Origin: Vermamoeba vermiformis
Lineage: Eukaryota
Assembly (NCBI GenBank): GCA_045837725.1
Contig: JBEWZL010000235.1
Location: forward strand, 248,001-312,000
Reading direction: 5' to 3'
Length of the DNA stretch: 64,000 bases
How positions within the stretch are numbered: the stretch's first letter is position 1; every line of letters begins with the position of its first letter. The notes under the pieces are model-generated. The model was not told the origin of the DNA and did not search any database. It was given only the letters and a program-made list of their open reading frames with translations. The translations under genes were made by a program, and so were the position numbers. Below are positions 3,632-45,650 of the stretch, piece after piece.

Positions 3632-4465
3632 ATGAGCGAGCAAAAATCAACCAGCGTCCAAGTAATTATTAGATCATGGGGGCAATTGCCTTTAGAGATT
3701 CGGGGCGAATTTTGCCGTTTAGCAGATCCGGCGACGGCAATTGTTATGCTCTTTGCTGATAAATCTCTATATTGCCAAGAATCTATATGGCGCAATATAG
3801 CTGCTCGACTTAATCTCGACATCACAGGCAATCCTCGAGATGTGTGCATTAAATGGCTCAAAATTCATCGTCACATCCTGCAGATCTATGGAAAAAGCGA
3901 CACTGTGACTATCAGTGATTGGTCATCTTATTTGAAAAATAGATTTAAATATCTAGGTATTGAACAGACGCTTCGACAGAAATATCCAACTTTTAAAGTA
4001 AGCTCCAGATCTGCGTTATTTCCCGATAATCTTAACACTCAATTTAAAGCTTCCTTTGGATTATCTGGAGTGGTTAATATTGGGTCCTCATTTTCAAGGA
4101 TATGGCGAACATCACAGAAGCTGGGATTGGAATAATTGGACGAGCGAACCGCTGGTGTTTCGTGAAGCGAACTCGTTGTGGCTGCAAGTCGCGACATTGA
4201 ACGACAAGCACGAGATGTTCATCAACTGCTGCGACACCAAGAACAAGCTGTTTGGCTGCACTGTGGGTAAGTTCAATTGATAGGACTAAAGAGCGGCTAA
4301 TGACACCTGTCAGATTGCTACGACACCGAGCTCGAGGATCAGTGCTTTGATGAGATTTGGACCAGTTGGCTAGCAGTGATCACGCGTGACTCGTACACAG
4401 ATCTATGGGACGGCGAGAGTTATCGGCGCAACTTGTTTGGTGAAAAAATTACATCGTTTTTTTGA
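3632..4465 (+). CDS. F-box-like protein with an SMI1/KNR4-like C-terminal domain
   Basis: N-terminus WGQLPLEIRGEFCRLAD...SIWRNI. Removing introns at ~3998-4050 and ~4268-4313 gives IEQTLRQKYPTFKLPLDYLEWL...MFINCCDTKNKLFGCTVDCYD...EIWTSWLAVI, with TGA at 4463-4465. Confidence 0.65.
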
Positions 4466-4591
4466 GTAGATTGCTGATTAAAAAGTTACAATTCAACGCC
4501 GCTATTTACTTTATTTCACAAATAATACATCGCGAGTGCAATTCCATAGTGATTGCAGGTAATTAGGTCCGTGAAGCACGTCATTCAACTG

Positions 4592-7468
4592 TTACAGTTC
4601 CACTGCGTTGGTGGCCTTGTTCTGCTTGTCCAGCAATTGCTTTCGCTTGCCAGCATTGCCCGCACCCATGCAAAACTGCACCTGCGTCTTGATGTGCTCA
4701 GGCAAGCTCTTGTAATCAGCGCTGCTCGCCACGGTGATGTAATTGCGCAGCACGAGGTCCAAGGCCTCTTCTTTCAACATGACAGCTTCGAGTGCAAATG
4801 CGACATCGAGCAAGTGACACACGTTCTCGAGTGTGATGTGCAGGCACAAGAAGTGTTGCGCTTGGAAGCTCAGTCCGTCTAACATCAATCGTGTCGCGAC
4901 TTCTAAAATATCCACGGCATTTTCACCGTTCAAATCTTTGCCTGCAGTCCAATTATACATGTATTTCAGGGCTGTCTTGAACGCACTGTTGAATCGCAAT
5001 TGTTAGCAAAGGCATTAAAAGTATATTCACAAGGTATTGCTTACATGACACTCGTGTCTTGCATTTGAATGTTCGGCAATCGATCCGAACTCTCTTTCAG
5101 TGAAATACTACCCATCCACGTGGCCAGATCCACCGAGTCAGGACTACGACAAAATTCAATACGAGTGGCAAATAAAATATGACTTACTTGTGCAATGCAG
5201 CTGTGGGCATGAACATGGCACGGAAGAACTCCGAGCGGTACATCAAAATGAACTTGTGCGCGTAAATCACCTCGGGCCCAGCAGCACCGTGCAAAGTGAA
5301 CTTGACGTCCGAGAAGAGTTGATTGTTGATCAGCTGCAACATGTCTGCCTTGAATGTACTCTCCAGCAGTGGCACATTCTTGCCCAGCATCGACTCGCAC
5401 AACGCCACTGTGATTGAAATGCGTTAGTACAAGTCACGGTTTGACACGTAAATGACACGTGACACGCACCTAATCGGTCGCATTTGAAGTGCTCGGCACA
5501 GTCGCGCAGTTCAGCCATCAACGGCTGTGAGCAGCGCAGTTCATCGGCGTACAAATAGTGCGCAAAGTTGACGAGCACTGTGTGGCTGAACTTGGTGGCA
5601 TCAATTGCATCGAGATCGGAGTTCGGGTCTTTGCCTAATTTGGGCAAGGCTGAGCGCAGGGACGGACATCGAGCCCAGAGCAGTGCTTTGTGGACGTACA
5701 CGCGTGACTCGTCTTTGATGCGCGTGTCACTTGACTTGCCTAATGACACTTTGACAGGTGTCACCATGTCACTCGGTGGTTTGCACAACAAGACGACATC
5801 ACTCGTGTTCGTGTCGTTAATGCACGCTGCAAATCCGTGGTGCTTGTTGATCGCTTTCACGAACGATTCTAAAATTGACAATGGTCAGATATAAGTGTCA
5901 ATTTGACACGTGTCATACCTCGAATCGGATCGCGCAGTACAGCAAATACATAGAACAGCGGAGTTTTGCCTTCGTTCATGTTGAGTACCGTCAACAATTT
6001 GGGATATTTTTTGCTGAGGTCGCGCACAATATTCCACCGCTGATACAGTGCAGCCACGTGCAGAGCTAATTTGGGACATTAATACCGGTTCACAGTATTA
6101 CCATATTTAGTAATCTTACGTGTATTTCCGTCAACCTTGTCTTTGACGAATGGATCCAGAGGCTGAAAGTGAGTAAGATGTATTAATAAGACTGCACTCA
6201 TAGGCCCAATAGCACTACTCGCACTATCGATGCAGCACTCACCAAGTCACTTTTGAGCATTAAATTCACAATGTCTTCGTAGCCTGAGCGACACGCCACA
6301 TGCAGCGCTGTCTCACCTAAATAACGAAAATTAAAATTTATAGTAACATTTAATATATATTGATTATATAATATAATAGTTACCCTCATCAGTGAGCACA
6401 TTCAAATCAATGCCGTGCTCCACTAAAAATCGTGAAATATATTTGTGATTTTTCTTCGCTGCCACATGCAGTGCAGTGCCGTACTGAGGACTGAAAATGA
6501 CCAAAAATAGATATTAGTGCTTATATTTACCAAATATAGTAATATTTATATTGTCCGTACCTTCGAATTGAAAGATTGGCCCCGTGATTGTTCAATAGTT
6601 CTAAAATATCGAGCCGACCTTTGACCGATGCTAAATGAACTGGCGCAATGCCTCTATATTTGGCAACATTACAGTGAGTATATAGAAGTATATTAAGAGC
6701 GGAATAATAAGTTTTGGTGGATTCGTACCGGCACATGATATCTGGATCTGCTCCGTGCTCTAATAGCGCCTCGACTATTTGTTCTTCGCCGTGCAATGTA
6801 GCGGTGTAGAGTGGTGTACGGGCCTTACTTCTATATTAGGAAATACACTATATTAGTCGACTTCTTCAATTTATTGCGTGGTCGCGTGACATGGATCGAA
6901 GTCGAAGTTGCGTAAAATTAACGGAAATATATTTAATTAATATAATATAATGGTATTATTATTTAATTGATTAATTAGCATAGTTCATTATGCGTAATTT
7001 TGTTCTGGTGATTTTCCCAATAATTACATAATTTTGTTGTTTAATTAAACGATTATTACGATCAAATAGGCGGGTAAATATTTATGTAGTATATAAATTT
7101 ACTATAAGTGATTGTAAGTGATTAAATGTAACATAGATCTAACTTACAAAATGTTCGGATCCGCACCGCTCTCCAACAGAAATGACACTATGATTTTATT
7201 CTTTCGTAATATAGCCTGTATATAATAAATTTACATAATTAATAAAATTTTCTTCGCACTGATCGAATAATTATTATAAAAAATTATGGATTCGCTGTGT
7301 AGTTACCAGATGCAGCGGAGTTAAGCCCTGTTGCTTCTCATTAATCTTTTCATATAGTTCTGGATTATCAACGAGGTCGCCGAACTGATTGTAATCGATC
7401 GAATGCCAGATGGACTCGAAAGCGGGGTATTGATACAAATGCGTGTTGCTTGATACGTCCGCGGCCAT
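4592..7468 (-). CDS. Ankyrin-repeat plus two BTB/POZ domain protein (ABTB-like Cul3 adaptor)
   Basis: Ankyrin exons (GLTPLHL, GIAPVHLASVKGRLDILELL, GETALHVACRSGYEDIVNLML), then BTB1 (SDVVLL...VYVHKALLWARCPSL), BTB2 (FSDVKFTL...IYAHKFILMYRSEFFRAMF) and a BACK-like tail. Confidence 0.85.
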
Positions 7469-8087
7469 ATTTACAAATAAATAGCTATATATAACAGCAC
7501 TCTATTGTCGTGCTCAGTCTAGTGCGAAATGAGTTTGAAATTGAACGGCTTGTCTTGATTAAAAATGAATAAATTTTATTTCTCGCTGCAAGGTCTTGTG
7601 ACCACCCAAGCACGCTCTAATTATAATATACTGACTAGGGCATATATTACATAAGGACATGAAATCTACAGCGATCAAATTTACGAGCACAACGTCCATC
7701 TCGTAGATGTCCATTTCTTAAAATACGGACTGGTTGATTAATTATCCTGGTAATATTTTCACTATAAATAATTACTATATACATATTATATTCTATCGAT
7801 ATAAGGCGTTCAAAGCGAGTGGAACTAAATTTTGAAGTACTTAACTAGTATCCAGTGGCCCGCGGTCGAGTTGTATTGAACCGCTTCTTTGTCTGAGCCA
7901 GGGCTTAATTGAACATAATTTAATACCAAATTGCGATGAGCCAATTTTTCACTGACGAAATTCAGTGAAAGCTCCATCTGAAAAGAAATCATTAATGAAA
8001 ATTATCGCTGATGGAAGAAATTTTGACAATTAATCTTGCTTTGTATACTAACCACCGCTCAAGCATTAACCACACAAGCACCTCAAT

Positions 8088-9367
8088 ATGACTTCTTTTC
8101 CAGCCTTCTTAGAGAAAACTTTGGTACGCGATCTTATCAAGGCCAAAGAGAGCAATACGATCATCTATCTCGATGAGAACTCTTCAGTGCACGATGCATT
8201 GCAAGTAAGTACATTTTAACATGTTATCTGCATTTTACTTTAGTTTCTGAAATTGACTTTGGATCTTACGACCTAAAAATTGCTTAGCGAGAATTTTTAC
8301 GAGTTTTAAATATTAAAGAAGTATTTTTGTACAGGTGCTTGCCAAAAATAATCTGATTTCGGCTCCAGTTCGTGTCAGTGACGCAGTAGATTGGCTCGGA
8401 TTCATTGATTGCCTCGACATATTGCGCTTGGCTATTCATATGTACACTAATGGCTCGAACAATATTGCAGAAGATTTAAAGAAGATTGATAACCCTCAAT
8501 GGAGCTCTTGGTGCCGCGACATTAATACGATGCAACACAGAGACGTCAGATTTGGTCTTACTCCGCTCAAGAAACTAATCGCTGGTCGTCCAGTCGATAC
8601 TTTTTGCCCTATTAACGACATGGGCAGCATTCATGAATTAATAGGTACAATATTTACCCTTCTCAATTTGCGAATACTTTGCTGAAATTTCATAGAGGGA
8701 ATTCTTGCCAAGGGAGCGCATCGTGCCCCGGTGATGGACAATAGAAATGATATCAAAGCTATAGTCACACAATCAGACATCGTTCAGCTGTTGTTCAACA
8801 ACTTGGATGTGCTCGGCGACTTGAAAGAAAAAACCATTCAAGAGCTCAAGATTGGCACGCATGAAGTGATCTCTATGAGCATTGACGGTACTGCCATATT
8901 AACATTACCATATTAGGCCACACCTACTAACTATTCGTGCTATTTTTAGCTCAAGCCATTCACGCCTTTTATTTGATGATTTATCACAGAGTGCACGCGG
9001 TGGCACTCACTCACGGCTCTTCGGGCAAATTAGTCGCGAATTTATCGGCCTCAGACATTAAGGTACGTACACTACTAGGCACCTAGATGATATATATACC
9101 TAACCTTATTCTCGCTAGGGCTTGGCCTCTGAAAACTTGTCGACGTTATTGTTGCCCGTGAAAAAGTATTTGCACGCTCATGCCAAGTTGAAGGGCGTGG
9201 CTGTTTCAGTGAAAAATGACTCGAACTTGGAAGAGTTGATTACCAAGTTTGCGTTGTTCAGAGTACATCACGTGTGGATGCTGGATGAGCAAGATCGAGC
9301 TGTCGGTGTCATTGGCTTGGCTGATCTGATGAAATTTTGCAACAAATGCTGCAAAGAACAGGGCTAA
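8088..9367 (+). CDS. CBS-domain protein (AMPK-gamma/Sds23-like)
   Basis: ATG at 8088. Spliced text includes SSVHDALQVLAKNNLISAPV, GAHRAPVMD...IVTQSDIVQLL, VANLSASDIK and RVHHVWMLDEQDRAVGVIGLADLMK, consistent with four CBS motifs. Confidence 0.85.
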
Positions 9368-9514: not shown

Positions 9515-12495
9515 ATGGCGAGCATAGAAGCCAGTCTAAGCGAAATTATTAAAAGATATCAAGCAGATCCGAGCTCAAATGCATTAAAATCCTCTGAACA
9601 ATATATTTTATCGGCGGTATGTAATAACAAATTCGCTGGCACCATTCAATAATGTCAAATTTCAATTTACTGAATAAAAGATAAATTAACAATATTATTT
9701 AGGTATTTTTCGATGGACACTCCTCCAAGGTTACTGGTACGTGGTGGGAGTAGCATAAATATTTTTTGAAATTAATTTGTCATCAAAAGGACGCAGTTCT
9801 GTACACGAATTCATTGACACGATAAAAAAACTTTTCGAGGCTGGATCTGATAAGGAAAGCATCAGAAAAGCTTTAAGTCAGCACGGATATGATGAAAATA
9901 CATTTAAACTCGTGGACGACTCGAAAAAGAATTTTAAAGGTAATTATCGCTACAGCTATTTTATTCATTTGTTATAACCACTTAGTAATGTCTATATTTA
10001 GTTACATTGGACGAGCTCTTCAAAACGGCCATTCAACGCGCATTAAGTTCAAAGCACAATGACTCGTTGCAATCACGTGTCATCGAGTTACAAAATATTT
10101 TCATTCAGGTACTTTGCATGAACAAAATTGACCGTAGTATTCATTATTAATATATATCTATAGCTCAAACAACGTCCCAGTGACGAGAACATTCAATTAA
10201 TGAAACAATTGCCGGGCTATGAATACATCGAAGAGTATTGGCTCAGCTCTTTTGCCCCGCATCAGCCACTCAACTTTGAACTGTTTGACGGTGACAAATT
10301 ATCGAACACTGGCGCGCAAAAGCTCAAAGACATCTTTAACAAATACGATGTGAATAATAAGGGTCATTTGAACCAAGCTGAAACTACAGTAAGTACTTCA
10401 ATCTGCCAAGATCTGAACACTAACCAAGTCTTTGCAGTTATTTCTCATCGCAATCAGTGGCTGGAACACAGTGCTCGAGTCAGATGCAGTGGCATTTGAA
10501 GACTTGAGACCTGTTTTTGAAGACAAAAACCGCCGCGAACGTTTGACTGACGGACTACTCGTGCATGAACATCATTTGAAGACCAACGATAAGAGTGCGT
10601 GATGAGCATATACTAATATCATTATTTATACGCTATATAACGACCACTTTTAGTCTCGTACAACGAAGTGATCAGTGCGTACACGAGTCAAGCCAAGTCC
10701 AAACACTTTAAAGGTGTCACTGAAGAGCTCAACACGACCACAAATGTGTTGTACTTGGCACTCAACGCATTTGTCAAGTTAGACCAACACGTAGTCGAAG
10801 AGTACATTCAGTTCAGTGGCTTGAAAGACGTACGACTGGATAACATATTTAACGGATCTGATCATTATTGACACGTTTCATATTAGTTGCCGGCCTTAAT
10901 AGCAATATCAGAGTGCGAATCACTGAGCACATTAGCACAAGCACGTGATTGTTTGACATTAGGTCTGAAATACTGGCAGAAACCAGTCCTCTCTGAAGCA
11001 CCGCTCGTCAAGGCACCTTTCTTCAAGAAACTCGATCAATTGTTGCAGAAATTTGTCTCCGAGCACAAGAACGGTATGTTAAGGGCTTTATTATTTGCAA
11101 ATATGCACTGCTAATATTATTGCCTGAATAGAGTTCGAAGAGTCCCTGTTAGACGAAGACTACATCAAGATGTTGTGCACGACTGAATCAGCGCCTGATT
11201 TGATTGCGCGAAAGTCTTGTCGCGTGTTTGGTGGCAACAAATTGACTGTAAGTAATCGGCGACTGAAAATTATTTTGACACTTTGACTTTGACACGCGTC
11301 ATTTGTGTAGCTCGGTGAAGTACTGCTGTCAGATGCATCGATTCAAGAAGATCACTTCTTCGGTCAGGCGTTCTGGCACATGAATGCCAAGCCACTGATC
11401 AAGTTTTTCGGTCTCATTCATCGTCGTGTTGGGTCATTTTCAGCGACAGCTATTCCGATGTGCATCAGTCTCGCAAAGACATCTGGCATTGCCATATTAG
11501 GCTAGTATTAATAACCTCGATTAGTCAGTTCCTAAAACCTCTTTAGAATGTCTGAATGGCATCGTGGCACGTGAGCTGATTGACGCACTTAGAGCGAGCC
11601 TTGAACAAAAGCCCTTGGCCTGTGTCTTGCCCTACGACTTCGAGGTCAACAACATCAAGGCCGCTGCAGATGTCAATGCAGCACTCGCACAGTACTTGGA
11701 GCTCAAAGTCGACGAGTTGACACCCTACTTCAACAGCTGTCAAATGGTGCAGCCACAACAGAACGTCGGCGAGATTATTTGGCAAGACTACAATACTCTG
11801 AAGCAATTAGGTACGAGTATTCGATCCATATATCAATGCTAGTAGACTGATTTAGTTTCAGGTGTGGATCGCAAAGTTTTAGCTGATAAATTAGCGGCAA
11901 TTATTGCGCTGGCTAGATATAGAAAAGCGACGCAAGAGTGGCGCGATATGGTCGCTAAAAATCCGCAGTTTAAAGTAACAGATGGATTTTTGAAGCATTT
12001 GAAGAGGTTAAATGGACTCGTACGACAAACGCTGCAAGTAGATCCGGAGAAGGTTGAAATGGGTTCTGACGCATTTCCTTACCGCGTAGAGCTTAAAGAA
12101 ACGCGGTACGTAGCTCATATTGATTAATTAAGTCCGTTGTTTAACTTTTTATTCTTCATCCGATCAGCGGTCACCATGAAGATCCGTTCCACCCTTCATT
12201 CGCCATGCAAAGCTATTACTTAGAGAGTGACTACGTCGGAGGTTCAGCAGAGGTCACTTTAGTTAATACGAAGCTCGAAAAGACGCACAAAGGTGAGTCA
12301 ATTTAACATTGTCTTTGTTTGCCTGATTAGGAAGTACTAATGGCGAGTTAATTTAATATAGAGTTGAGCAGTGTTCAGTTAGGTGATATGTTGCCCTATT
12401 TGATTCGCGTTGCATGCTTTTTCGAAGGTCCCGAAGTTCCGTACAGGGTTGATCCGCAACGAATCTGTTCAATTTTAGAGCTGAGCAAGCAATAA
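9515..12495 (+). CDS. Multi-exon hypothetical protein with an EF-hand-like loop and a conserved-looking C-terminal 'FFEG..PYRVDP' domain
   Basis: ATG at 9515 (MASIEASLSEII). EF-hand-like segment DIFNKYDVNNKGHLNQAE. The last exon reads GDMLPYLIRVACFFEGPEVPYRVDPQRICSILELSKQ, with TAA at 12493-12495. Confidence 0.65.
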
Positions 12496-17619: not shown

Positions 17620-19512
17620 ATGGAACACAAACCACACGCGTAAGCTCAATAATAGTAGTATCATAATTACTAATTATTTGCAGTGTATTGTCAACGCCCG
17701 ACAAGATCCGTTTGGCGCATCTTGCGGATGACGTGATTAGAGAAATAATGAGCCGTTTAGAGCCCAAATATTTAAAGAGATTTGAAATTACTTGTCGCAG
17801 ATACTATGCGATCGGTCATAACACCTCATTGGTAAGTTCTGTCAAAATATTAATATTCTAAAATTAACAGACGCGAAGATCTGTCAATGTAAATGGTTGC
17901 TAATATCATTTTAAATATTTATTAATATAGTGGCGATATTGGTCATTGCAAAAATGGCTCAGATCCGCGGATGATTATAAAGGACCAAAAGATTTCATAA
18001 AATATCCATCAGACGGTATTAATTGGCAAGATTACTATGCTACAAAGTCAATCGAAGAATACGAGAAGTAATATATCATATTGATACCTTCAAAACATGT
18101 TCCTAACAATTTCTCTATAGGCTTAAAGAGCTGCCGGTTCGGCTGTTCGTTTTTCGTGCAAAAAACTCGCCAACAGCTGTCATATTGCGCAGAGGGCCTA
18201 GAAAATGTAACTATAGCATTATTTACGCCCATAGTACTTCGAACTCATTTTTCGAAATCTGAATCCAGATTGGTTGATGATCAAATGGAACACTATTAAG
18301 GACACTTTTGAATGCGGTCAATGGTATGTTGTTTTACTCTAGCAATACAAGTATAACACCCTTTTTAGGTTCAAAGGCTACATCCACGTACCATTTTGTC
18401 ATTTGAGCGATGACGGCGAACACTTTATTTATTTCGCAACAAAGTTTCATCATCAGGTATATTAATTAATCCTATTATATATATTATTAAGCTACTGATC
18501 TTTTTTCTGCTCGAGATCTGAAAATTTAAAAATATTTCCTTTTGTAGGCAGGACAGCATTGGACAGCAGTCTGCAAAGTGCCTAATTTCACCGCACTGGC
18601 CATGTGGAGCAATCCCAGTGTGCACGAAGGTGGCGGCAGATTTGTAACCAAATCAGTGCTGCGATTGTTCCGCTCATCGGATGCACCGCCCGCGACCATT
18701 GCTCCGAAGATCAATTTGAGAATCTACTGCAACGAGGACAAACTGCCGCACAGCTATGTTAAGCAGTAAGTATTCAGGGATTGAAGTGGATGTTTGACAC
18801 GTGAAATATTTGAATGACACGCGTCATGTACTCGACATTATTGGCAGCCAATAGCAGTCTTTGACACGTGTCACTGTTATTTTGACATGTCAGTCACGAG
18901 CTTTTGTGACACGTGGTAATGGCTCTGTCGCGCTCTTGGCCTGTCAGCACAAATGACACGTGTCAGGTGTCAGCATTCAAGCTCTACCCTTTGACCCAGT
19001 ACTGACATGCAATTCTCCTTCAGGTGTTTGCAATCAGCACCGCAAGTCACCAGCTCTAGCTCGCCAGAATTGCAGCCCATGCCGCTCTTGTACGAGCAGG
19101 GCGTGCAGTGGGATGAGTGGCGCGATGCACGCATTTGTGACTGTCGGACATTCCACTCGTGTCCGCTGATTGAGTACTCCAAGCCTCATCTCCTCATGAA
19201 GTGCAAGTGGATTGATGCGTCCGACCCGTGAGTTTCTTGCTCGATGTTACAAACACGTGATTTCTAACCAATGTGATCAGACCAATGGCGTCGCTCTACC
19301 GACGCTCGTGCACGTATTACATTGAAGACAAAGAGCTCGCAGTTGATTGGGCTGACTTGGATCTGTCGCAAAAACGACTCGTGTACAGCGAGGGCGGCAA
19401 ATTGTTCAGCAAATCATTCACGCTGGACAAGGAGAAGAAACTCGTGTGGGGCGATGTGAAGCTGTTGGAAGATTTTTCATTCCTGCAGTACGAAGCTAGC
19501 AACAAAAAATAA
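17620..19512 (+). CDS. F-box protein with a bacterial-type C-terminal domain
   Basis: A 20-nt first exon is followed by LAHLADDVIREIMSRLEPKYLKRFEITCRRYYAIGHNTSLWRYW (F-box). Downstream: DTFECGQWFKGYIH..CHLSDDGEHFIYFA, WTAVCKVPNFTALAMW....EGGGRF and WADLDLSQKRLVYSEGGKLF. Confidence 0.75.
18795..18972. repeat. Intronic cluster of TGACA-NN-TGTCA palindromes
   Basis: Exact TGACACGTGTCA at 18862 and 18954, TGACACGCGTCA at 18815, TGACATGTCA at 18883, and TGACACGTG at 18795 and 18907, all within one intron. Confidence 0.85.
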
Positions 19513-29383: not shown

Positions 29384-30931
29384 ATGGCCAGCTGGGTACC
29401 GCCCATCTTGTCCTCTCTTTTAGCTGGCGTCGTTGCAATAGGTATTAATTAATATCACTAATATGATCTTTAATCTCACATATCAAAGTGTCACAGCCTA
29501 TTAATCGCCTCGATCGTGTATTTTGAACTAAATTTTTTATTTTCGATCGTTGAAATTTTTCTGCGCGAAGTATTTAATTACCTATGTAGTTGTAAAATTA
29601 ACACATACGATTATTAGTATCTACTGTTGCAATCGAGAAGTTAGGTGGTGCTGTTGGCGGAGTGATCGCGTGAGTTCAATATTGGATCGAATCTAGCGCT
29701 GATTCTAACCAAATAAGCTTAGCTCTTCACCTACCTCGAGTGTATTAGCAAGTATAGGCATTGCAATTCAATCCCCTGAACGCTTAGATGAGGCGATGCA
29801 TTCAATACCAACAGTGATGGTACAAAAGATCCGACAATCTTTATTTCAGTTCAAAATTTATTAATCAATATGATTAGCTTATAAATACGCTATTTCTACA
29901 TGTATGGCGAGTACTGCCGCCTTATCTGCCCAATGGTTGGAAATTCAACAAAAAATTAACGGCCATGATCTGCATCACACTCGGAACTTGGTTCAGCGTC
30001 GCACTGACATTCGTAGCTATAGTGAGATATGGCTTTAATAATAATATCCTTGCTATTCAAATCATTGGCGGCCTCGCTATGGCTACACAACTGGCGCTAG
30101 GGCTGACAGCGGTGTTGAAGCAAAAACGCGCCGTTGCAAAGGCCAAAAATAGTGTTGGCATTGGCACATTGCTCAGCAGAGGTACTACTTTGACACGTGT
30201 CAACAGCGAAGTGACATTTTGACAGGTGTATTGGCCAGTACGGCAGTTATTCTCGCTATTCTTTTGTCAAAAATCAACGGCACTGTGGCAGCGCTAGCGA
30301 CTGCATTTCCAGGTCAGTAACATTATTATTATTATACTACTATCCATGTAATATTAAATTAATTGTTACAATTGCAGCTGTCTTCACGACTACGATGATT
30401 AGTTTGTGGATCAGTCAAGGTGAACATGTCACTTCAGGAGCCGTAGGTAAGTTACGCGCATATAAAATAGGACCCTATCTCATACTATTTGATAGGCCCC
30501 ATGATCCTCGGTGCATTCTCCGGGCCAGTGGTACGTTCGTGTTGTTTCACTGTGCGTGGCAATTGTTGTAACTAATGACCTCAAACTAGTTTGCCATCGC
30601 CATGTCCCAACTAGCGCCATTATGGGGACCATTCATCGGCGCACTCATCTCGTACATTATTGCCATTGTGACGTGCTCGATTCCCGTGGGATTTATTTTG
30701 AACAAGTTAGAGGCACGGTACAAACCACTCGAGGAGGACAACAAAGTCGTTGACGAGAGCACCGCTGACGAATCAGAACACGACACACAGCCCGCACAGA
30801 TTGATTTAGATAAGGACAGCCAGTCACCGCAGATTGAACTCACAGAAAATGAGGAGAAAACGGCTGATAGTAACGACAATCATGTAGCAGATCTGCAAAG
30901 TAAATCGGTGCCAAATCCAGCGCACAACTAG
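29384..30931 (+). CDS. Uncharacterised multi-pass membrane protein with an internal two-fold repeat
   Basis: MASWVPPILSSLLAGVVAIVSTVAIEKLGGAVGGVIASSPTS. The second half reads AILLSKINGTVAALATAFPAVFTTTMISLWISQGEHVTSGAVGPMILG, followed by an acidic tail. Confidence 0.75.
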
Positions 30932-31028: not shown

Positions 31029-34000
31029 TTACATGGCAAACAGAGACAAGATGACAGCGAGCACTGCATTGAAAGCGGCAGTGACAGCGCTGGCAACTTG
31101 ATCCTTGGCAGGAGTGTTTCCGGGGTCGTCGGCAATAGGCTCGTCAGCAACGGGCTCGGTAACAGGCTCAGCAATAGGTTCGTTAGAGGCTTGAGGAGTA
31201 GAGACGGGCACGGATTGAGGCGCGGACACGGGGCCAGAGGCAGGAACGCACTTGGAGTTCTCGCACAGGTTGCTCAAACAGTCCTCGTTGATGGAGCAGG
31301 TTCTGTTGAGCGCGCAACCACCGCAGAATGAGCCACCGCAGTCAACGTCGGTCTCGTCTTGGTTCTTAGAACCGTCGCTGCATGTCGCTGTGCAGATCAT
31401 GGACACGCAAGAACCACCGAGGCAGTCGCTGTTGATGAGACAAGCCTTCTTCCAGCCACACTTGGGGCAAGCGCCACCACCGCAGTCAACGTCCGTTTCG
31501 TCAGCGTTTGTGACCGCATCAGTGCACGTGGGAGCTATGAAATTGATTACATCAGACCTCATTGTTAAGTCGCGAGATATTTATATTTAACTTACCGCAA
31601 GTGCCTGCAGTGCAAACACCGCCCGTGCAATCAGTTCCGTTATTGCAAGTGTTACCAGTGGTGCATTGAGTGCTGCAAGAACCACCGCAGTCAACATCTC
31701 CTTCATCTTGGTTCTTCACGCCGTCATCGCAAGTAGCAGCTTGGCAGATGTTGTTTGAGCACACTTTAGATTCACAATCAGAGTCGCCAATGCACTTTTG
31801 TTGTGCTTGACAAGGACTGCAGTCAGAGCCACCGCAATCGATGTCAGTCTCGTTTCGGTTTTGTTCGCCATCATCACAAGTTGGAACGGCTAAAATGAGT
31901 CCCGTTAGCAACTCGGCAATACTACAAGCTTCAATAAGACTTACAGCACTTGGAGGAGCCTGAGCAGCAACCGCTGACACAATCACCAGCGATGCTGCAA
32001 GTTTCACCGGTCAAGCAAGTAGCACCACAAGTACCACCGCAGTCTGCGTCGGTTTCGTCTTGGTTCTTGCGACCGTCATCGCAGGTAGCAACACAAGTGG
32101 ATGTCACATTGCTGCAGAGGCGGCTAACACAGTCGCTCTCGGTCTTGCACGATTGATCTTCGATACAAGTAGCACCACAAGCACCACCGCAGTCAGTGTC
32201 GGACTCGTCTTGGTTGGTGACATTGTCGTCGCAAGTAGGGATTTCTATGCAAAGGTTAGTATCGAAAAACAAGTCTGTCCGGTTATTGGGTACGTACTGC
32301 ATGTTCCGAAAGAGCTGCAATAGCCAGACGCACAATCACCATTGCCATTGCAAGTATCGTTAACAACACAAGTAGCACCGCAGATACCACCGCAGTCAGT
32401 GTCTGACTCGTCTTGGTTCAGGATTCCGTCTACACATGAAGGAGCTATTGCAAGTGTTAGATTTGGAACAACACAACTGTGGATTTGGCTCAAACATACC
32501 GCATTGATTATTCTCGTCACAGACCGAACTCAAGCAATCAGCACCGGATTTGCAGCTAGCTCCTTCAGCGCAGTTACCACCGCAAACTGAACCGCAATCA
32601 GTGTCAGATTCGCCCTGGTTCTTGGCTCCGTCATTGCAAGTAGGGTTCACTGGTGATGATGTGAGTAAGTCACCTCCACAAGTCACGTGAAAAAAGCTTA
32701 CCGCAAGTCAATCCGTTGCAATAACCAGAAGAGCAATCATCGTCAAAGCCACACTTCTTGTTGAGAGCGCAAGTACTGCAAACAGAGCCACCGCAGTCTA
32801 CGTCGGTCTCGTCTTGGTTCTTGACTCCGTCAACGCAAGTAGGATCTAAAATGAGTGTCAGGTAATCGCTCCGCTGCGACATTAATACCGAGACTTACCG
32901 CAAGTATCATAGATATTGCAAGAGCCACCAATGCAATCTCCTCCAGTCAAACAGCCATCACCCTCAGCGCACTTGGTTGCACATGAGCCGCCGCAGTCGA
33001 CGTCAGTTTCATCGCTGTTCTTAACATTGTCCGAGCAAGTGGGAGTAACACAAGTGTTGTTTGCCGCGCAATAGTTACTGGTACAGTCGCCCCAAATAGA
33101 GCAGCTCTTGCCAAGAGCACAAGGACTGCAAGAACCACCGCAGTCGATGTCAGTCTCGTCTTGGTTCTTGAATCCGTCAACGCACGTTGGATCTGAAGAA
33201 CAAGCTGTTAGGACTTCACTGGCAGCAATTGCCAAACGGTACGTACCACAAGTGTTACTAACGCCACAAGAGTTTGTGACGCAGTCGGTGTTAGCAACAC
33301 AACCTTCACCTTCACCGCACTTTGTTGAGCACGAGCCACCACAGTCGATGTCAGTTTCATCACTGTTCTGAACTCCGTCATCGCAAGTAGGAGTGACACA
33401 AGTCTTGTTTGCGGCACAGTAGTTGCTGTTACAGTCATCCCAAATAGAGCAGCTCTCACCAAGAGCACAAGGACTGCAAGAGCCACCGCAGTCGATGTCA
33501 GTCTCGTCTTGGTTCTTGACTCCGTCAATGCAAGTGGGATCTAAAAAGAACAAGCCGTTAGACCCCACTGGTAGTGCCACACAATACGTACCGCAAGTGT
33601 TGCTAATGCTGCAAGAGCCACCAATGCAATCTCCTCCAGTCAAACAGCCATCACCCTCACCGCACTTTGCTGCGCATGAGCCACCACAGTCGATGTCAGT
33701 TTCATCGCTGTTCTGAACTCCGTCGTCGCATGTGGGAGTGACACAAGTGTTGTTTGCCGCGCAATAGTTACTGGTACAGTCGCCCCAAATAGAGCAGCTC
33801 TCACCAAGAGAACAAGGACTGCACGAACCACCGCAGTCAACATCGGTTTCGTCGCCGTTCTTCATGCCGTCGATACACGTGGGTTCTAAGTAACAACCGT
33901 TAACAACTATTCAAAGATACTGCAGACAAAAGGCATACCGCATGTGTTATTCAGGCCGCAAAAGTCGGTGTCGCAGTCCTCGCTTCCATTGCAATTATCG

Positions 34001-37000
34001 CCGACCTTGCAAGTAGCACCACAAACGCCACCACAGTCAATATCGGCTTCATTCTGATTCTTAACAGTGTCGTTACATGAGGCAAAAGCTATTTCGAATT
34101 GTTAGTCGCCTTGTATGAACAGTATGGCGCAATCAACGTACCGCAGACGTTATTGTCACAAATGAAACTGGCACAATCATCGTTCACAAGGCAAGCTTTG
34201 CCTCCAGCACAAGTAGCACCACAGCCCCCACCGCAATCTACGTCGGTCTCGTCCTCGTTTTTGATAGTATCACTGCACGTTGCATTCTCTGCTCGGGTGT
34301 TAAAACAATTGCTTCGATATCTGAATATAATACGTACTGCAGACCAAGATACCAGGGTAACAAAATGCGGTAGTACAGTCATCATCAGCAAGACAACTTT
34401 GATCGACATTACATTTGCTACAAACGTCACCACCACAATCAACGTCAGTTTCGTCCTGGTTCTTGCGGTTATCAACGCAAGTGGGTTCTGTCCACTGTTA
34501 GTCAACATGCTAATAAAAGTTTAAACTTACGGCAAGTGTTAGATTGGCAGGAGTCGGTAATGCAATCGCCGTTAATTGTACAGCTGTCTCCTTCAAGGCA
34601 CGTAGCACCGCAGATACCACCGCAATCGGCATCGGTTTCGTCTTGGTTCACCCAAGTATCATTGCATGTAGGAATTGAGCAGAAACCATTGGGGTTGCAG
34701 TAGTTGCTCGTGCAGTCAGTACCGTTCAAGCACATCTTGCCATCAGCACATGTGATGGCGCAAGAGCCACCGCAGTCGACATCGGTTTCGTCGCCGTTCT
34801 TCCAAGTATCGATGCATGTTGGGGTCGCACAGAGACCATTAGGGTTGCAGTAGTTGCTCGTGCAGTCAGTGTCAACTGAGCAGGTCTTGCCATTGTCACA
34901 GTTAGCTGTGCAAGAACCACCACAGTCTACGTCTGCCTCGTCTTGATTCTTGATACCGTCAGTGCACGAAGGTTCTGAAATTGATGGTTAGTAACTTTTA
35001 ACTAGCCGGCAGTATAGAACTTACGACATGTTCCTCCAGAGCAAGAGCTGCTCGTGCAATCGGTTCCAGTTGAGCAGGTCTTGCCATTGGCGCACTTCGT
35101 AGCACAAGAGCCACCGCAGTCGACATCGGTTTCATCGCCGTTCTTCCAAGTATCGATGCATGTTGGGGTCGCGCAGAGACCATTAGGATTGCAGTAGTTG
35201 CTCGTGCAATCTGTACCAACTGAGCAGGTCTTGCCGTTAGCACACTTGGTTGTACAGGAGCCACCACAGTCGACGTCTGTCTCGTCTTGGTTCTTCCACG
35301 TGTCAACGCACGAGGGAGTTGCTGCGCATTAAAAATTAGATTAACTACCTAAGCATATTCTTAAAACTTACAGCAAAGACCGTTAGGATTGCAATACGTG
35401 CTCGTGCAGTCGGTGCCGAGTGAGCAGGTCTTGCCGTTGGCGCACTTGGTTGTGCAAGAGCCACCACAGTCGACATCTGCTTCATCGAGGTTCTTGATAC
35501 CGTCAGTGCACGAAGGGCCTGATGAAGCGTGAGTAAAGCGTGACTTTGCAGTTGGTTACTTACTGCAGACTCCAGCGTCGCAATTGCTGCTCGTGCAGTC
35601 AGCGTTCTGTGAGCAAGTCTTTCCGTTGGCGCACTTGGCAGAACAGCTACCACCGCAGTCGACATCTGTCTCGTCTTGGTTTTTGATCAAGTCAGAGCAA
35701 GTGGGTGTGGCTATTGATAAGTGTCAATAAACGTATTGCAACCGCGTTTGAAAGGCTCTACTCACCGCATTGATTGCTGGGGTTACAGTATGCGCTGCTA
35801 CAGTCAGTGCCACTTGTGCACGATTTGCCGTTGGCGCACTTGGTTGAGCAAGGACCACCACAGTCAACGTCCGCTTCGCCTTGATTCTTCCACGTGTCAA
35901 CGCACGAGGGAGTTGCTTAATGGTTTAATTAGAAATGTAAGCTTAACTATGAATGTTGATCTTACAGCAAAGACCGTTTGGATTGCAGTACGTGCTCGTG
36001 CAGTCGGTGCCGAGTGAGCAGGTCTTGCCGTTGGCGCACTTGGTCGTGCAAGAGCCACCACAGTCAACGTCTGCTTCATCGAGGTTCTTGATACCGTCAG
36101 TGCACGAAGGGCCTGATGAAACTTCAGTAAAGGGTGACTTTGCAGTTAGTTACTTACTGCAGACTCCAGCGTCACAATTGCTGCTCGTGCAGTCAGTGTT
36201 CTGTGAGCAAGTCTTTCCGTTGGCGCACTTGGCAGAACAGCTACCACCGCAGTCGACATCAGTCTCGTCTTGATTCTTGATCAAGTCCGAACAAGTGGGT
36301 GTGGCTATTGATAAATGTCAATAAATGTAATGCGATCGCATTTGGAAGGCTCGACTCACCGCATTGATTGCTGGGGTTACAGTATGCGCTGCTACAGTCA
36401 GTGCCACTTGTGCACGATTTGCCGTTGGCGCACTTGGTTGAGCAAGGACCACCGCAGTCAGTGTCTGCTTCGCCTTGGTTCTTGAAGCCGTCGACGCAAG
36501 AGGGAGTTGCTGAAAGTATAACAATTAGAAACAAAAGATTGCCATGAACTTTGATCTTACAGCAAAGACCGTTTGGATTACAGTACGTGCTCGTGCAGTC
36601 GGTGCCGCTTGAGCAAGTCTTGCCATTGGCACACTTGGTTGAGCAAGGGCCACCGCAGTCAATGTCTGCTTCGCCTTGGTTCTTGATACCGTCACTGCAA
36701 GATGGTTCTGAAATAGATAATCAGTAAAGGCACACGGATCATGTTGATTGACTTACGGCAAGTTCCGCTGGAGCAAGAGCCGCTAACGCAGTCAGTGCCG
36801 CTCGAGCAAGTCTTGCCGTTGGCGCACTTGGTTGAGCAAGGGCCACCGCAGTCAATGTCTGCTTCGCCTTGGTTCTTGAAGGTGTCAGTGCACGAGGGAG
36901 TTGCTGAAACGAGTAAATATACAAACTAAGACAATAATTAGACCTTACAGCATAAGCCGTTGGGGTTGCAGTAAGTGCTGGTGCAGTCAGTGCCGGTTGA

Positions 37001-38759
37001 ACAAGTTTTGCCGTTGGCGCACTTGGTTGTGCAAGGACCACCACAATCAATGTCTGCTTCGCCTTGGTTCTTGAAGGTGTCAGTGCACGAGGGGGTTGCT
37101 GAATAGTTCAATTAGAAATGTAAGATTACTATGAACTTTGAACTTACAGCAAAGACCGTTGGGGTTGCAGTACGAGCTTGTGCAGTCAGTGCCGGTTGAG
37201 CAAGTCTTGCCGTTGGCGCACTTGGTAGTGCAAGGACCACCACAATCAACGTCTGCTTCGCCTTGGTTCTTGAAGGTGTCAGTGCACGAGGGAGTTGCTG
37301 AAAGTATAACAATTAGAAACAAAAGATTGCCATGAACTTTGAACTTACAGCAAAGACCGTTAGGATTGCAATACGTGCTCGTGCAGTCAGTGCCGCTTGA
37401 GCAAGTCTTGCCATTGGCACACTTGGTTGAGCAAGGACCACCACAATCAACGTCTGCTTCGCCTTGGTTCTTGAAGGTGTCAGTGCAAGAGGGAGTCGCT
37501 GAGACGAGTAAGTACAAACTTAGGGAATAACTTGAACTTACAGCATAAGCCATTGGGGTTGCAGTAAGTGCTCGTGCAGTCAGTGCCGGTTGAACAAGTT
37601 TTGCCGTTGGCACATTTGGTTGAGCAAGGGCCACCGCAGTCAATGTCTGCTTCGCCTTGGTTCTTGATACCGTCGGTGCACGAAGGAGTAATTGGCACCA
37701 AGGATATATCGTGAATAAGAACGTTACTTGGATTAGCTATAGTAGTTGGACTGCCAGTGTTGATAGTGGATGAACCAGAATCCACCAATCTGAAAATACG
37801 AGTCGCAGAGGTGAAGTAAATAACGGTGCTACCACTCTCCAATCTGACAAAGATACCGTTGGGAAGCACAGTGATAGATTTGGATGCAACTTGAGACCAA
37901 GTACCACCAGATTTAGTGAACTTGACAATGGCTGCATTTGTAACATCCACACGGTTTGTCGCGTAGATAACAGTGTCAGAAAATACGAAGAACTTGCCGC
38001 CCTTCCAATTGCTGGTTGGTGCAATAATGCTACTCGGGGTAACGGAGCTTGATGGATACGGAGTGCTTGTACCAATAGCATAAGGTGAGGTGGTACTATA
38101 CTGACTGTAGTACTGAACTCCGTTCAAGACTTGCATGTCGTAAACATCTGTAACACTGCCGCCGAGGATGTTGGTCACTGTGGCACCGGTTGAACCAATA
38201 GGCACTTTTACGAGACGTCCAGCACCCGCAGCCCACACGTTGCCTGAATATGGCAAAGCAGTGTACAAGTTTTGATTGTTCAAGGAAAAGGTTGTAGTAG
38301 TTACGGTGCCCGAGCCGTCGACGGTGTAGACGTAACGGGATGCAGTATTTGAAATGGTGCTTCCTGCAGTACCTGCGTAGCAAGGTACCGCTAAAATTGT
38401 GCCGTCTTCACTCAGTTGAGCACCTCCCTCCATAGCGTTGGTGAAGCCGCCCCGAACAATGCACCTAGGATGGCGTCGGTTAAATTGCTTTAGTCTTTAC
38501 GTTCTTACGATAACGAAATTGTTTGCACGAGAGTACCGGACGTTGTGTATTCGTCGATAAATAGGGCATTACTAGTCGAAGACGGAGTGTTTGCTGAAAA
38601 ATAAATCAATGAGTACATCCAGATGAGTACAATGAATCTCGAATCCTTACATCCATCACCTGATCTTGTAACAAGAATGTTTCCCTGCGTGAAAGCCGCA
38701 CCTAAAACTAGATGCGCGCAGTACAGCACTAACAAACAGGTTGCTAACAAACGACCCAT
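31029..38759 (-). CDS. Large secreted, probably GPI-anchored, Cys-rich repeat surface protein
   Basis: Signal peptide MGRLLATCLLVLYCAHLVLG, a beta-rich N-terminal domain, about 35 repeats of P[TS]CxDxxKNQ[DG]E[TA]DxDCGGxCxxxCxxGxxCxxxxDCxSxxC, a Pro/Ser/Glu stalk and a hydrophobic C-terminus (SAVTAAFNAVLAVILSLFAM). Confidence 0.88.
32898..33885. repeat. Triplicated two-repeat exon (~347-bp period)
   Basis: CSPC.LG.SCSIW.DC.SNYCAAN.TCVTPTC recurs three times with near-identical DNA. Confidence 0.85.
35372..37690. repeat. Recent tandem exon+intron duplications within the Cys-rich gene
   Basis: The three-exon block at ~35372-35914 is near-identical to ~35966-36509, with similar introns. Exon+intron units of ~200 bp recur at 36560-37690; the intron text 'gaaagtataacaattagaaacaaaagattgccatgaactttga' appears at ~36512 and ~37300. 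Confidence 0.85.
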
Positions 38760-39336
38760 GTTGCGGTCTGTCTAGCAAAAAATTGGACTGATTCAGTACA
38801 GCAGCGGCCGCCGTAAATTATCGGCGCAGTGTTTTCGTCGGAGGGTTTTCCTTATATGGAAGCTATATAATCTCCAGCGCTGATTATGCGCGAGTTCCGA
38901 AACCGTACCATTTCGTTCTGGGTAGGACATCTGCACAAGTTAAAAGAGCTTATTCAATTTTGTTCTTCAAAAAATAATCGAAATTACTATCAGTTGTAGG
39001 TATAATTGTGGATGCATATTTTACCAAAATTATCTTACGTTATGTTTGCAATAAATTTGTTTATCCTTTTTTAGATCAGACAACAAAAAGTACGTTTCCC
39101 CAGCGGGGTTACCCGTGACTGTTCTAAGCTCGTAAGGACTTAATAGCAGGCCAGTAAGTCAATAAATAAATAACTTAAGCAGCTGTTTGATTGCAATGTC
39201 TGCGCAAATCCACGCAATACTAAAAACAAAAAAAATTATAATTTATTTGTCCCTTGTGACAAATCAACAAGTGCTATTACCGTAGCACATTACTATATTT
39301 TCAATTCTTTGAGTCTATTGGATCTGGAGATTGCGA

Positions 39337-42300: not shown

Positions 42301-45300
42301 TGCAACGTTATCACAGTGCTACCTCGTTGCAAAAAGCCTTTTGAGGGTTGCAAACGGCACAGAAGTCCATAGTCGGTGCGTTTGTAATGCACGTGTCATA
42401 CGCTTGTTGGTACGGCTGATTGATGCTATCCGCGGACCGCCAGTTGCACGAGTAAATCGGGCACGACGTATTGGTAGCCTCCTTGATCTATGGCGACATA
42501 ACCTAGATTAGGGCTAACCCTCATATTATTGGTAAAACTCACGTCATAACGGAGCCAAATGGCGTCAAAGTATTGGCACGCAACGAACTTCAATGCTTGC
42601 TGCCATTCTTCAATAAATTCCGAGAACTCTTGCGTAGCATTTACTGTGATATTGTACGATGGAGCTAATCGATCAAGCAATGAAGGGTGTGCTTGGTTGA
42701 GCGTGCACTAGTGATGAAAATAAGTTCGGTCGTAATAAATTAACCTTGATAATGCTCACCGATGTACGATCAAAATTTTCATTGATGTCGACGCACACTG
42801 AATCGTTGAGCAGAAATGCATTAAATTCTGCGAACTAAAGAGACCGTTAGTTCAGTCCGTATGATTATGCTACTGATCTATCTTACGCTAATAAAGTTCG
42901 AGTCACAGCCCAGGACTGGATGACTTTGTCGCACTCTGAAGTAACTTTCAACCAAGTTTGACACGCATTGCGGGGCGTAACACTTGTCTTGAATAGCACT
43001 CGATGACACGCTGACAAGAGACGCAGTGGTGAAATTGACCTCTTGAGGCACGCACACCACAGTAATGTTGCTCGCATCTCCTGTGGGCAGACCTACCCAG
43101 TTCTGTAACGGCGAGTTGGTTAATAACATACCCGCTATAATTTGTTAGCCAAGACATACCCAGTTTGTAGGCTGAATGCAGCACGGGTCACTGTCAAATG
43201 ACGGATCGTTCTACCAAAAGTTAGAAGGTCAAATCGCTAGACATGCCAATCCTTACCACATCTGACACGCATCGGTCCGTGAACACCGTCTGTTGCTCTC
43301 GCTCGGACGTCAACAAGCTGTCTGCAAACGCTTGACAAGCCTCGTACGAATCGTATGAGATCACACCATTGATCTGTAATAAAATAAAAGCTTTAGAGTA
43401 AAATAACAAAAGTTCTAAAGAAGTCGTGACGTGTACCTCCAGGCGCAGTGAATTCACGGCAAAATCTTCGCTGGTCGAAGTCAGCGAGCTAAGAATAGAA
43501 GCTACTCGACGGTGATGCTCGTTGAATCGTTGAAAGTTACATGCCGGTAGCTCTTTGGGCAAAAAAGTAGTGCTCATAACAATAGGCTAACACGACATTA
43601 GTACTCGAGAAGCAAGCACATTGAACTTACGTTTCCTTGACTGTCCGCTAGTTTTCCTACAAAGTGCATCGATGCACCTTCAAACTGTGCAGGAGTGATG
43701 CGTCTGAAGCCGTACTGGTTCAATTTGCGTTCCGAGAGCACCACTGCCACCGCGTACTTCGAGCTCGAAAGATCACTAAATTGGACATGTCGCAAGCTAT
43801 AATAGTTAAGACCATTAGTCACTAATTAATATTATTATGATACTAACTTTGCAAAGTTGTCTCTGATGATTCTTGGGGGGCTGGGTAACAGCGGATTTAC
43901 TTCCGATCCACTAAATAAGTGCCAATAACCATCACAACCGTTCTTATAGAAGTCAAATGAGTCGCACATTAGGCGATCAGTATTTGTAGTGACCAATGAA
44001 GTGCCTCGAAGCGCGTACTGAAGTGCATTGGGCTGGAACTCTGAGATCGGTCGCGTAAACAACCAGCCTGAGAACAATATATTAAGCTCCTCATAGTATA
44101 TTAACAAAGAGCTTTTTACCTGGATTGGTCGAAACCGCAATTGTATAATAGTAATTGGATCCCTCTGGAAAGATGCGCGATCCAGGAACTCCGATGTTCA
44201 GGTAAGAGTCATTCTATCAGACTATTAACCTCGCGCATAAACAATATTTCCACCTACATTCGTGATACAAAAAGAGAACGTAGTGCCCTGTACAGGATCC
44301 AGTTGGAGATGGAGCGTTGAGGGATTCGATCCGTCCGTCACAAAATTCGGATAGGGGTTTGTCAAAGATACAATGCTATGTAAGCGTTAGAGTTATTGAT
44401 AAGGCGAGTTAATTAAGACTTACTAAGGTAAGTTGGCGAAAACAGACACGGTCACAGGGCACTGTTGCGGCAACTTAAATGAATAGAATGTGTCCTTCAT
44501 TGCATCGTCAGGCAGTGTAGCAGCTAGCTCTTGATCGTCTTGCAAACATGTATGTGAAGAAGTTGCTGCCACGCAATTTTCAAGGGGCGGACTGGTCTCG
44601 AAAGGCAACGCTAAACACGAGGCGTAAGCTCAAAATAAAGCTGGTTTAAATTTAGTACTTACGTTTGACTCGAAGAGACAATGAATATGCTGTATCATTC
44701 CAAGTATATATAGTCGGAGAAACTCGGATTATAAAATTTAAACCAAGCATCCGAGGAAGTCCGCTAAAGTTCGGGCAGAACAGGACGGAATCAGGGTTTG
44801 TTTGATAGCTTTTAAATGCGTAACTAATAAATGCGTCATCGCCCACTGCTTCATATTCGGAGGCATAAACAACCTCTAACTGAAGATCTCCGTTGTCAGC
44901 CAAAAGTTCAATAAAGTACACGTCGCACGAACTGTTGGCACCTAAAATCCAACATTAATAAAATACGAATGTAGTAGTCATATTGCTTACTAATAAAGAA
45001 CGGATGATATTGCGGCTGTCGGTCGTACATGACGTTCCGAATTGGGGAGGCGTTTGGAAGAAGCTAAAAAGAATTCATGAGAACTCAAATATTGCCAACA
45101 TTAATTCAAGTATACTTACAGCAGTTAAATTACAAACCGCTGAAATTGCGCACGGACAACGCGGATCGTTCAAGCGACTACCAGCACATGTGTCAGGATC
45201 CGTGTAATCACATGGTGGACAGCCAGTAGTATGAGGCGTATCTTCTACGCGACACTCTAACGCACAGTGGCCTAAAAAGGAAAAGGTGAAATTCCAATTT

Positions 45301-45650
45301 TGACGCGTGTCACCCCAACACTTTCTGGTCCCAGTCTATCTTACCAATCGTCTCAATGATCGAAAGAGATTCGTCGAACTCAACTTCATACACGCCCTGA
45401 TTACTAATCAGCATAAAGTAAGACGTAAAACTAAAATAAAATTGTAACTGACCAGTTCAAACCTTGTGTCCAACGAATCCACTACTTTCCTCTTTTAAGA
45501 AGGTTAGTCCTAGGGTCTTGCACTGAACTATATTTAACAAATATTTACCTGATGTGTGGCACTTAAAATACTAATGGCTTCAGCACAGAGCAGGGCATCC
45601 ACCAACAGCAGATAGAGTCCGATCAAAATATAAGAGCTGATTCGCGCCAT
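39337..45650 (-). CDS. Large Cys-containing ectodomain + C-terminal 7TM (TOM1/GPR137-like) receptor-like protein
   Basis: Signal-like MARISSYILIGLYLLLVDALLC and many exons with Cys-rich segments. The TM region reads ELGLIITVIICYGFNLLFSVYCIV...VRLLYFLLL...YVLIELPSFFYFSTLSIYVIVW. The Ser/Thr tail ends with TGA at 39337. Confidence 0.72.

Follow-up and report, generated by a model that had tools for sequence, protein, structure and literature searches.

E-boxes and G-boxes (CACGTG, with an ACGT core) are the sites of bHLH and bZIP dimers, with GACACGTGTC as an ABRE-like form, and the TALE homeodomain proteins (MEIS, TGIF and PKNOX) have a palindromic dimer site, TGACAGCTGTCA, in which two TGACA arms are separated by an uncontacted 2-bp spacer. 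Signals resident in introns include the PATC clusters of C. elegans germline genes and the complementary intron sequences that drive circular RNAs. Here we describe a 12-bp palindrome, TGACACGTGTCA, in a 64,000-nucleotide stretch of Vermamoeba vermiformis DNA (positions 248,001 to 312,000 of contig JBEWZL010000235.1, referred to in its entirety as the window), where it is found repeatedly in predicted introns of unrelated genes. The window is eukaryotic with a GC content of about 0.41, and contains no matches to Rfam. The best reading of the element, to which we assign a probability of roughly 0.35, is that it may be a selected dimeric protein-binding site in gene bodies.

As a candidate non-coding, intron-resident signal acting on its host gene, the palindrome resembles both PATC clusters and the intron sequences that drive circular RNAs; those signals are long, degenerate or repeat-derived, whereas the window element is a single exact 12-mer. 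Among iterated exact palindromes the closest precedent is HIP1, a highly iterated 8-bp cyanobacterial palindrome (GCGATCGC) linked to orphan methyltransferases (PMC4390886, PMC13756078). The two elements have in common that they are short perfect palindromes, orders of magnitude over expectation, dispersed with unrelated flanks and of debated function. HIP1 is bacterial, whereas the window motif belongs to a eukaryote, measures 12 bp and is tied to introns; its abundance is known from the window and from one further contig (L020, described below). Introners (Gozashti et al. 2022, PMC9860276) resemble it in that a subset of introns in unrelated genes shares sequence, although introner similarity spans to both splice boundaries and the window introns have only 12 bp in common, at a variable place within each intron. 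Full-text literature searches with the 12-mer and its 9–10-mers returned no description of the motif among the titles listed (papers with the exact 12-mer concern Ebola virus, by title), and the titles listed for introners, including introners in Amoebozoa, likewise yielded none.

Enrichment, boundaries and symmetry of the palindrome

Six exact copies of TGACACGTGTCA are present in the window, starting at 5904, 18862, 18954, 26445, 27972 and 30191, and none of 100 dinucleotide-preserving shuffles contained a single copy (0.00 expected). Allowing one mismatch gives 13 copies against 0.13 expected, and allowing two gives 24 against 3.02. Markov models trained on the window predict 0.0033 exact copies at order 0 and 0.33 at order 5, and the latter value falls to 0.13 once the copies are masked ahead of training. 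With one repeat-rich gene set aside, TGACACGTGTCA is the most frequent 12-mer of the window. The element was first noticed in an annotation made by a model from the nucleotides alone, referred to here as the sequence-only reading. A recount finds the same six exact copies, and its estimate of about 0.003 expected per 64 kb matches the order-0 value; the fifth-order background that it proposed as a check leaves the enrichment intact within the window (6 against 0.33).

One-mismatch copies are located at 4301, 5453, 5752, 10869, 11290, 18815 and 45301, those at 5453 and 10869 being additions to the five already reported. The partial copies noted earlier at 5442–5466, 19836 and 27253 are also real, and partial copies retain one arm plus CACGTG, as expected of a strong half-site of a dimer. 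The dyad symmetry of TGACACGTGTCA is perfect, and the palindrome extends to 16 bp at 26445 and to 14 bp at 30191, in agreement with the earlier description. When the 13 sites are aligned in both orientations, information content is 1.3–2.25 bits at each of the 12 motif positions, and is no greater than 0.25 bits at the 12 positions on either side (24 flanking positions). We conclude that the palindrome is genuine, with strong enrichment and sharp boundaries.

Enrichment increases steadily as the word is lengthened from one arm through the center, with TGACA at 1.6 times expectation, TGACAC at 2.9, TGACACG at 7, TGACACGT at 15 and TGACACGTG at 57 (15 loci in the window). All six exact copies contain the CACGTG core, and TGA flanks a CACGTG half-site in 17 of 36 cases in predicted introns compared with 4 of 40 in exons. 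The TALE lead offered in the sequence-only reading holds as to geometry, since TGACA-N2-TGTCA fits a TALE dimer site. It agrees less well with the enrichment, which depends on the core, TGACA alone reaching only 1.6 times. All eight TGACA-N2-TGTCA sites in the window belong to this motif, and in six of the eight the spacer is CG and part of the enriched CACGTG. Partial copies keep the core and not both arms, and the canonical TALE word TGACAGCTGTCA is absent from the window. Because enrichment rises through the CACGTG center, an E-box/G-box-type dimer site appears to fit better than a TALE site.

Several properties are those of E-box and G-box sites, including the palindromic CACGTG core, an apparent recognition that extends into the flanks, and partial copies consisting of a half-site plus core; moreover, a near-identical box, TGACACGTG[G/T]CA, recurs within the repeat elements of other contigs that look eukaryotic (see below). 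The distribution is different. E-box and G-box sites are mainly in promoters and enhancers, whereas the window motif is a fixed 12-mer that is almost confined to introns, with roughly one copy every 10 kb in the window and every kb in L020.

Host introns and the evidence for intron location

Gene models were derived with a rough exon-chaining gene finder trained on the window, which labels 33.7 kb as exon, 21.2 kb as intron and 9.2 kb as intergenic, and predicts 199 introns. It recovers a kinase gene with an N-terminal C2 domain (54681–56973, minus strand) as this is defined by homologue alignment; the gene has an 87%-identical homologue and relatives of about 70% identity, the named ones being transcriptome proteins of Amoeba proteus and Difflugia compressa. 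These relationships suggest an amoebozoan, probably a tubulinean. Introns of the window are short, with GTAAGT or GTACGT donors and branch-like CTAAC, CTGAC or TTGAC sites. The sequence-only reading placed all exact copies within introns, and all six do lie in predicted introns; for three of them the location is corroborated by transcript-like homologues, and for the others it is a matter of prediction. The number of genes with exact copies is five, rather than the four given originally. The host genes are unrelated and on both strands, as originally proposed, and the exon translations of the ten genes with motif copies have no mutual similarity at E≤1e-3.

The two homologue-checked introns, 5869–5918 and 18766–19023, contain three of the six exact and one of the seven one-mismatch copies. 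The first is a 50-nt intron in an ankyrin/BTB gene (4596–7468, minus strand), with an exact copy (5904–5915) beginning 3 nt past the 5' splice site and additional TGACA/TGTCA half-sites. The homologue P0130 (93% identity) continues through this point as ...DPIR-E-SFVK... and, since its 386 aa are encoded on a 1244-nt contig, there is no room for introns; P0130 also indicates that exons are missing from our model of the ankyrin/BTB gene. The second is a 258-nt intron (plus strand) with five copies, at 18795 (two mismatches), 18815 (one), 18862 (none), 18907 (two) and 18954 (none), spaced 20, 47, 45 and 47 nt from start to start, the sequence between them not being repeated. P0131 (334 aa, 1328-nt contig) aligns to 18548–18763 and then to 19028–19222 with only two residues between, so the 258-nt segment holding the copies at 18815, 18862 and 18954 is skipped.

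The ankyrin/BTB gene contains two further one-mismatch copies. One, at 5453–5464, lies in a 62-nt intron (5408–5469, minus strand) together with the overlapping partial copies at 5442–5466; this intron has GT..AG boundaries with 70 open codons on each side. The other, TGACAGGTGTCA at 5752–5763, is located within the coding exon 5470–5868 that carries the BTB domain, so that its earlier assignment to coding sequence is correct. Segments 5408–5477 and 5869–5928, which include a few preceding exon bases along with the two introns, are 76–77% alike over 22–25 nt beyond the motif, a resemblance that is not significant by BLAST.

Outside the two homologue-checked introns, the other eight are predictions only, based on splice-site scores (GT..AG), open frames and reading by eye. 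Of the predicted introns, three are on the plus strand in the left part of the window: a 47-nt intron (4267–4313) whose 3' end (TGTCAG|) is formed by the one-mismatch copy at 4301–4312; an intron at 10830–10979 (alternatively 10830–10886, 57 nt) with a one-mismatch copy at 10869–10880; and a 63-nt intron (11248–11310) with TGACACGCGTCA at 11290–11301 and TTTGACAC half-sites. In a transporter-like gene (19592–22032, minus strand) two adjoining introns within 19828–20068 contain CACGTGTCA at 19836 and TGACACG at 19998. The 163-nt intron at 26324–26486 (minus strand) includes both the exact copy at 26445–26456, with its 16-bp palindrome, and CACGTGTCA at 26384. The exact copy at 27972–27983 is in an intron at 27915–28221 (minus strand; 27936–28221 with an alternative acceptor), about 20 nt upstream of a TAACTAAC branch-like site; the in-frame GTACGT donor and both acceptors were read by eye, and a protein similarity search around the 27.9-kb exon junction matched a widespread domain. 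A 44-nt intron at 30182–30225 (plus strand), ending in TTTTGACAG|, contains the exact copy with a 14-bp palindrome (30191–30202), and a 73-nt intron at 45272–45344 (minus strand) has a one-mismatch copy at 45301–45312 in its middle. The place of the motif within introns is not fixed, ranging from 3 nt past the donor (5869–5918) to the acceptor itself (4267–4313).

Counted on both strands, TGACACG falls within introns 29 times, within exons 13 times and within intergenic DNA once, corresponding to 1.37, 0.39 and 0.11 per kb. Words of the motif have the highest z-scores of all 7- and 8-mers in the 199 predicted introns, at 21–33 compared with 12 for the 5' splice-site word GTAAGTA. Introns bearing TGACACG have a GC content of 0.39 versus 0.35 and a median length of 126 versus 63 nt, and motif introns are in adjacent pairs in three genes. 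A bias of motif clusters toward 3' ends or convergent genes was considered and is unsupported with such rough gene models. The intron location of the palindrome is reasonably supported.

Flanks, conservation and occurrence elsewhere

Flanks of 120 nt on either side of the 13 sites, compared with the motif masked, have in common only words of 8–14 nt (best E 0.002), many of which are further motif fragments, in accord with the earlier view that the flanks are not homologous. Comparison of the window with itself yields no matches at E≤1e-5 outside a Cys-rich repeat gene (30.5–39.4 kb). A repeat search of three motif regions identified no inverted or direct repeats other than the motif itself, and no structure of terminal inverted repeats (TIRs) or target-site duplications (TSDs); by eye, no consistent TSDs were seen at eight motif introns. 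The homologous flanks with TIRs and TSDs that would mark ordinary fragments of miniature inverted-repeat transposable elements (MITEs), named in the sequence-only reading as the observation to look for, were thus sought and not found, and we reject copies of MITEs or other class II transposons, given the lack of flank homology, TIR/TSD structure or a dispersed repeat. An introner family is also rejected. Gozashti et al. (2022, PMC9860276) define one by intron-to-intron BLAST matches at E≤1e-5 that reach near both splice boundaries in at least four introns, and the window introns fall short of this with their 8–14-nt words. Because the flanks share only such words and the ten host genes have no protein similarity, the motif copies are not MITE or introner copies, a conclusion that we regard as reasonably supported.

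A close relative provides indirect information on conservation. P0129 is an uninterrupted open reading frame (ORF) on the relative's contig with 92% exon identity, which reads through introns 8, 9 and 10 of the ankyrin/BTB gene. In the window, frames across the motif encode H-V and D-T-C-Q. At intron 8 P0129 has W-H-V-D-T-C-Q at the matching place, followed by residues that are not alignable to the window; at intron 9 it has W-H-V-T-R and I-D-T-C-I, then N-A at the branch-like site; and at intron 10, which lacks the motif in the window, it has no motif-type residues. The motif-encoded residues at intron 5408–5469 are among those kept. Motif state would therefore be concordant in all three orthologous introns, as far as translated sequence can indicate this indirectly.

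The palindrome recurs in a second uncultured eukaryote, represented by a contig of 5596 bp (L020, GC 0.47) with genes for a RhoGAP, an adenylate-kinase-like P-loop protein and an acyl-CoA dehydrogenase. L020 has six exact copies with unrelated flanks, against 0.04–0.6 expected, and all six are in predicted introns. Five of these introns are 46–60 nt long; the sixth, in the RhoGAP gene, is 37–55 nt long by eye and 202 nt in the gene model. With an antisense model excluded, about 9 of 19 predicted L020 introns have a copy with two mismatches or fewer. L020 and the window have no nucleotide or translated similarity.

L020 was among the contigs recovered by scanning metagenomes for the palindrome followed by TGACACGTG within 30–60 nt, a pattern that matches twice in the window. 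At least 120 metagenome loci have this motif pair, and in control scans the same pattern was matched at 41 loci across 596 Gb of prokaryote sequence and at 3 loci among viral contigs. Among the 120 metagenome loci listed, 93 have a GC content below 0.37. The low-GC loci among the matches listed (75 of 155), together with one locus read fully, consist of a few families of one element of about 1 kb in ORF-poor DNA, whose long inverted arms each contain three TGACACGTG[G/T]CA boxes. Carriers of this element, all AT-rich contigs, include L023 (1546–2563), L001, L014, L026 and L051. In the one copy read fully, the ends of the element resemble TA plus a Stowaway-type terminal repeat. Among the remaining metagenome loci listed are satellites and, in ORF-dense DNA of bacterial appearance and higher GC content, operator-like pairs; eleven mid-GC loci among those listed were compared with the window by blastn and tblastx, and none resembled it.

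Satellites with the motif are exemplified by L092 (582–1310, unit of about 20 bp) and L015 (797–1059, unit of about 33 bp, seven exact palindromes). At L005 and L019 (higher GC) and at L035 (ORF-dense, GC 0.39) two palindromes flank a short stretch, an arrangement reminiscent of paired operators between divergent promoters; at L005 and L019 this stretch carries TTGACA on each strand. One uncultured Prevotella metagenome-assembled genome accounts for 8 of the 41 prokaryote matches (L129, L130, L135, L138, L140, L141, L147 and L149), so that genome has its own palindrome-carrying repeat. The box is used elsewhere with clearly homologous flanks, and the window copies are without such flanks. By analogy, the iterated boxes and operator-like pairs elsewhere show that the 9–12-mer can be a workable protein site.

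Two other features of the window were noted. A very large predicted gene (31065–39290, minus strand) is divided by 43–61-nt introns into about 30 exons, each 147, 150 or 294 nt long and encoding one or two Cys-rich modules (…C.D..KNQ.E.D.DCGG.C…); it is the source of all dispersed repeats in the window, and its introns do not contain TGACACG. The word ACGGATCT is present in eight copies on both strands, for example at 10852, 12182, 17706, 20432, 21150, 22683, 23381 and 62495, with about 1.8 expected from base composition as calculated by hand. Seven of the eight are outside predicted exons, and it is possibly a second non-coding word.

Function of the element and rival explanations

In the reading that we favor, TGACACGTGTCA would be a discrete 12-bp cis-element kept by selection, with sites that stand alone or form small arrays in transcribed but non-coding gene segments (introns) of a compact protist genome. 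The putative binder would be a sequence-specific DNA-binding dimer whose E-box/G-box-type site is extended by TGA...TCA arms, and once bound it might influence the gene body by way of transcription, chromatin or some comparable process. The data show the enrichment, the sharp edges, flanks without common descent, the intron location and recurrence in a relative and in a second eukaryote; that a protein binds, that the element acts as DNA and what binding does are inferred. Maintenance of the 12-mer itself is suggested by its dyad symmetry, sharp edges and dependence on CACGTG, and by its retention while neighboring intron sequence diverges. The array in intron 18766–19023, in which units otherwise unlike one another are spaced at 47, 45 and 47 nt, also favors this reading.

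Several observations weigh against it. The intron and intergenic labels depend on our own, rough gene finder, sampling is limited for both the window and L020, and conservation in the relative is judged from amino-acid strings only. TGACACG is present in only 16 of the 199 predicted introns (~8%), and these are clustered, with 14 of 89 in the first 31 kb and 2 of 110 elsewhere (Fisher P = 3.7e-4). The 9.2 kb of intergenic DNA contains none of the 13 copies with one mismatch or fewer and only one of the 43 TGACACG counts, a near-absence for which rough estimates give P of about 0.02–0.03 in the window and about 0.02 in L020. A site for a typical transcription factor would not be expected to show this pattern, which is explained at least equally well by a role in RNA or one coupled to transcription.

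It is rather unlikely, though likelier than the other rivals, that the motif acts in pre-mRNA, either by binding a splicing or intron-associated protein or as a self-complementary 'zipper' that pairs copies within or between transcripts; any two transcript copies can pair, because the word is its own reverse complement and copies read the same on either gene strand. The confinement to introns and near-absence from intergenic DNA argue for such a role, as do the copies that abut splice signals, with GTA plus motif in 5869–5918, motif plus G as the 3' splice site in 4267–4313 and L020, and TGACAG| in 30182–30225. The half-sites TTGAC and CTGAC are also like the branch sites of 30 confident introns, motif introns are side by side in three genes, and the non-palindromic TGACACG is sense in 12 cases and antisense in 5, although this bias is not significant. 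A general splicing signal is nonetheless ruled out, as 183 of the 199 predicted introns lack TGACACG, including all nine of the homologue-checked kinase gene, and its position is variable. Against pairing, the folding of two multi-copy introns is unremarkable (z of -2.1 and +0.8) and some transcripts have one copy only. Read by eye, all three CGCG variants are in the sense orientation that gives an A·C mismatch rather than a G·U wobble, and other variants break pairing too.

Descent from mobile elements, in which an introner or MITE, or its protein-binding boxes, seeded or invaded introns and survives there as relics with only the box recognizable, is improbable on present evidence. It would account for the restriction of the motif to a GC-richer and longer subset of introns, for the elements of about 1 kb filled with the box at many loci of AT-rich metagenome contigs, and for the weak similarity beyond the motif of the neighboring introns 5408–5469 and 5869–5918. 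It does not sit easily with the lack of flank homology, TIRs, TSDs and dispersed repeats in the window, with introns of 44–63 nt that are too short to house an element, or with 12 near-perfect positions beside flanks of zero information, which is unlike neutral decay. The introner definition of Gozashti et al. (2022) is likewise not matched, and the motif introns are shared with the relative and are therefore not recent insertions. We consider it more improbable still that the palindrome is a by-product, without function of its own, of a mutational or repair bias of the type discussed for HIP1, such as local slippage or gene conversion spreading TTTGACAC-type words through transcribed non-coding DNA, or methylation-linked repair at the motif. 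T-rich runs ahead of many half-sites, short tandems such as TTTGACAC-TTTGAC-TTTGACAC, the clustering of copies both regionally and within genes, and the precedent of HIP1 as a palindrome tied to methyltransferases (PMC4390886) are all in keeping with mutational bias. No known mechanism, however, repeatedly builds a 12-bp perfect palindrome, CpG is not depleted (3117 CG dinucleotides, observed/expected about 1.1 by hand), and a second organism, whose GC content differs, has the motif as well.

A broader proposal, that a clade of amoeboid protists selectively maintains one exact 12-base palindrome, confined to introns, across thousands of genes as a new class of gene-body element, is tentative and somewhat doubtful. 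One possibility is that a chromatin or elongation factor uses such a signal as an array site; another is a self-complementary RNA 'zipper' that pairs introns. Its short length and exactness make the motif suitable for direct tests by pull-down, DNA affinity purification sequencing (DAP-seq) and mutation. If the pattern holds genome-wide, it would be a rare eukaryotic instance of an exact palindrome that is highly iterated, and one restricted to introns, some of only 44 nt; it would also offer a well-defined case for discussions of how introns come to share sequence in the absence of transposition. It would further give a compact and testable handle on what short introns carry beyond splice signals, whether DNA sites for regulation, marks tied to elongation or chromatin, or pairing between RNAs.

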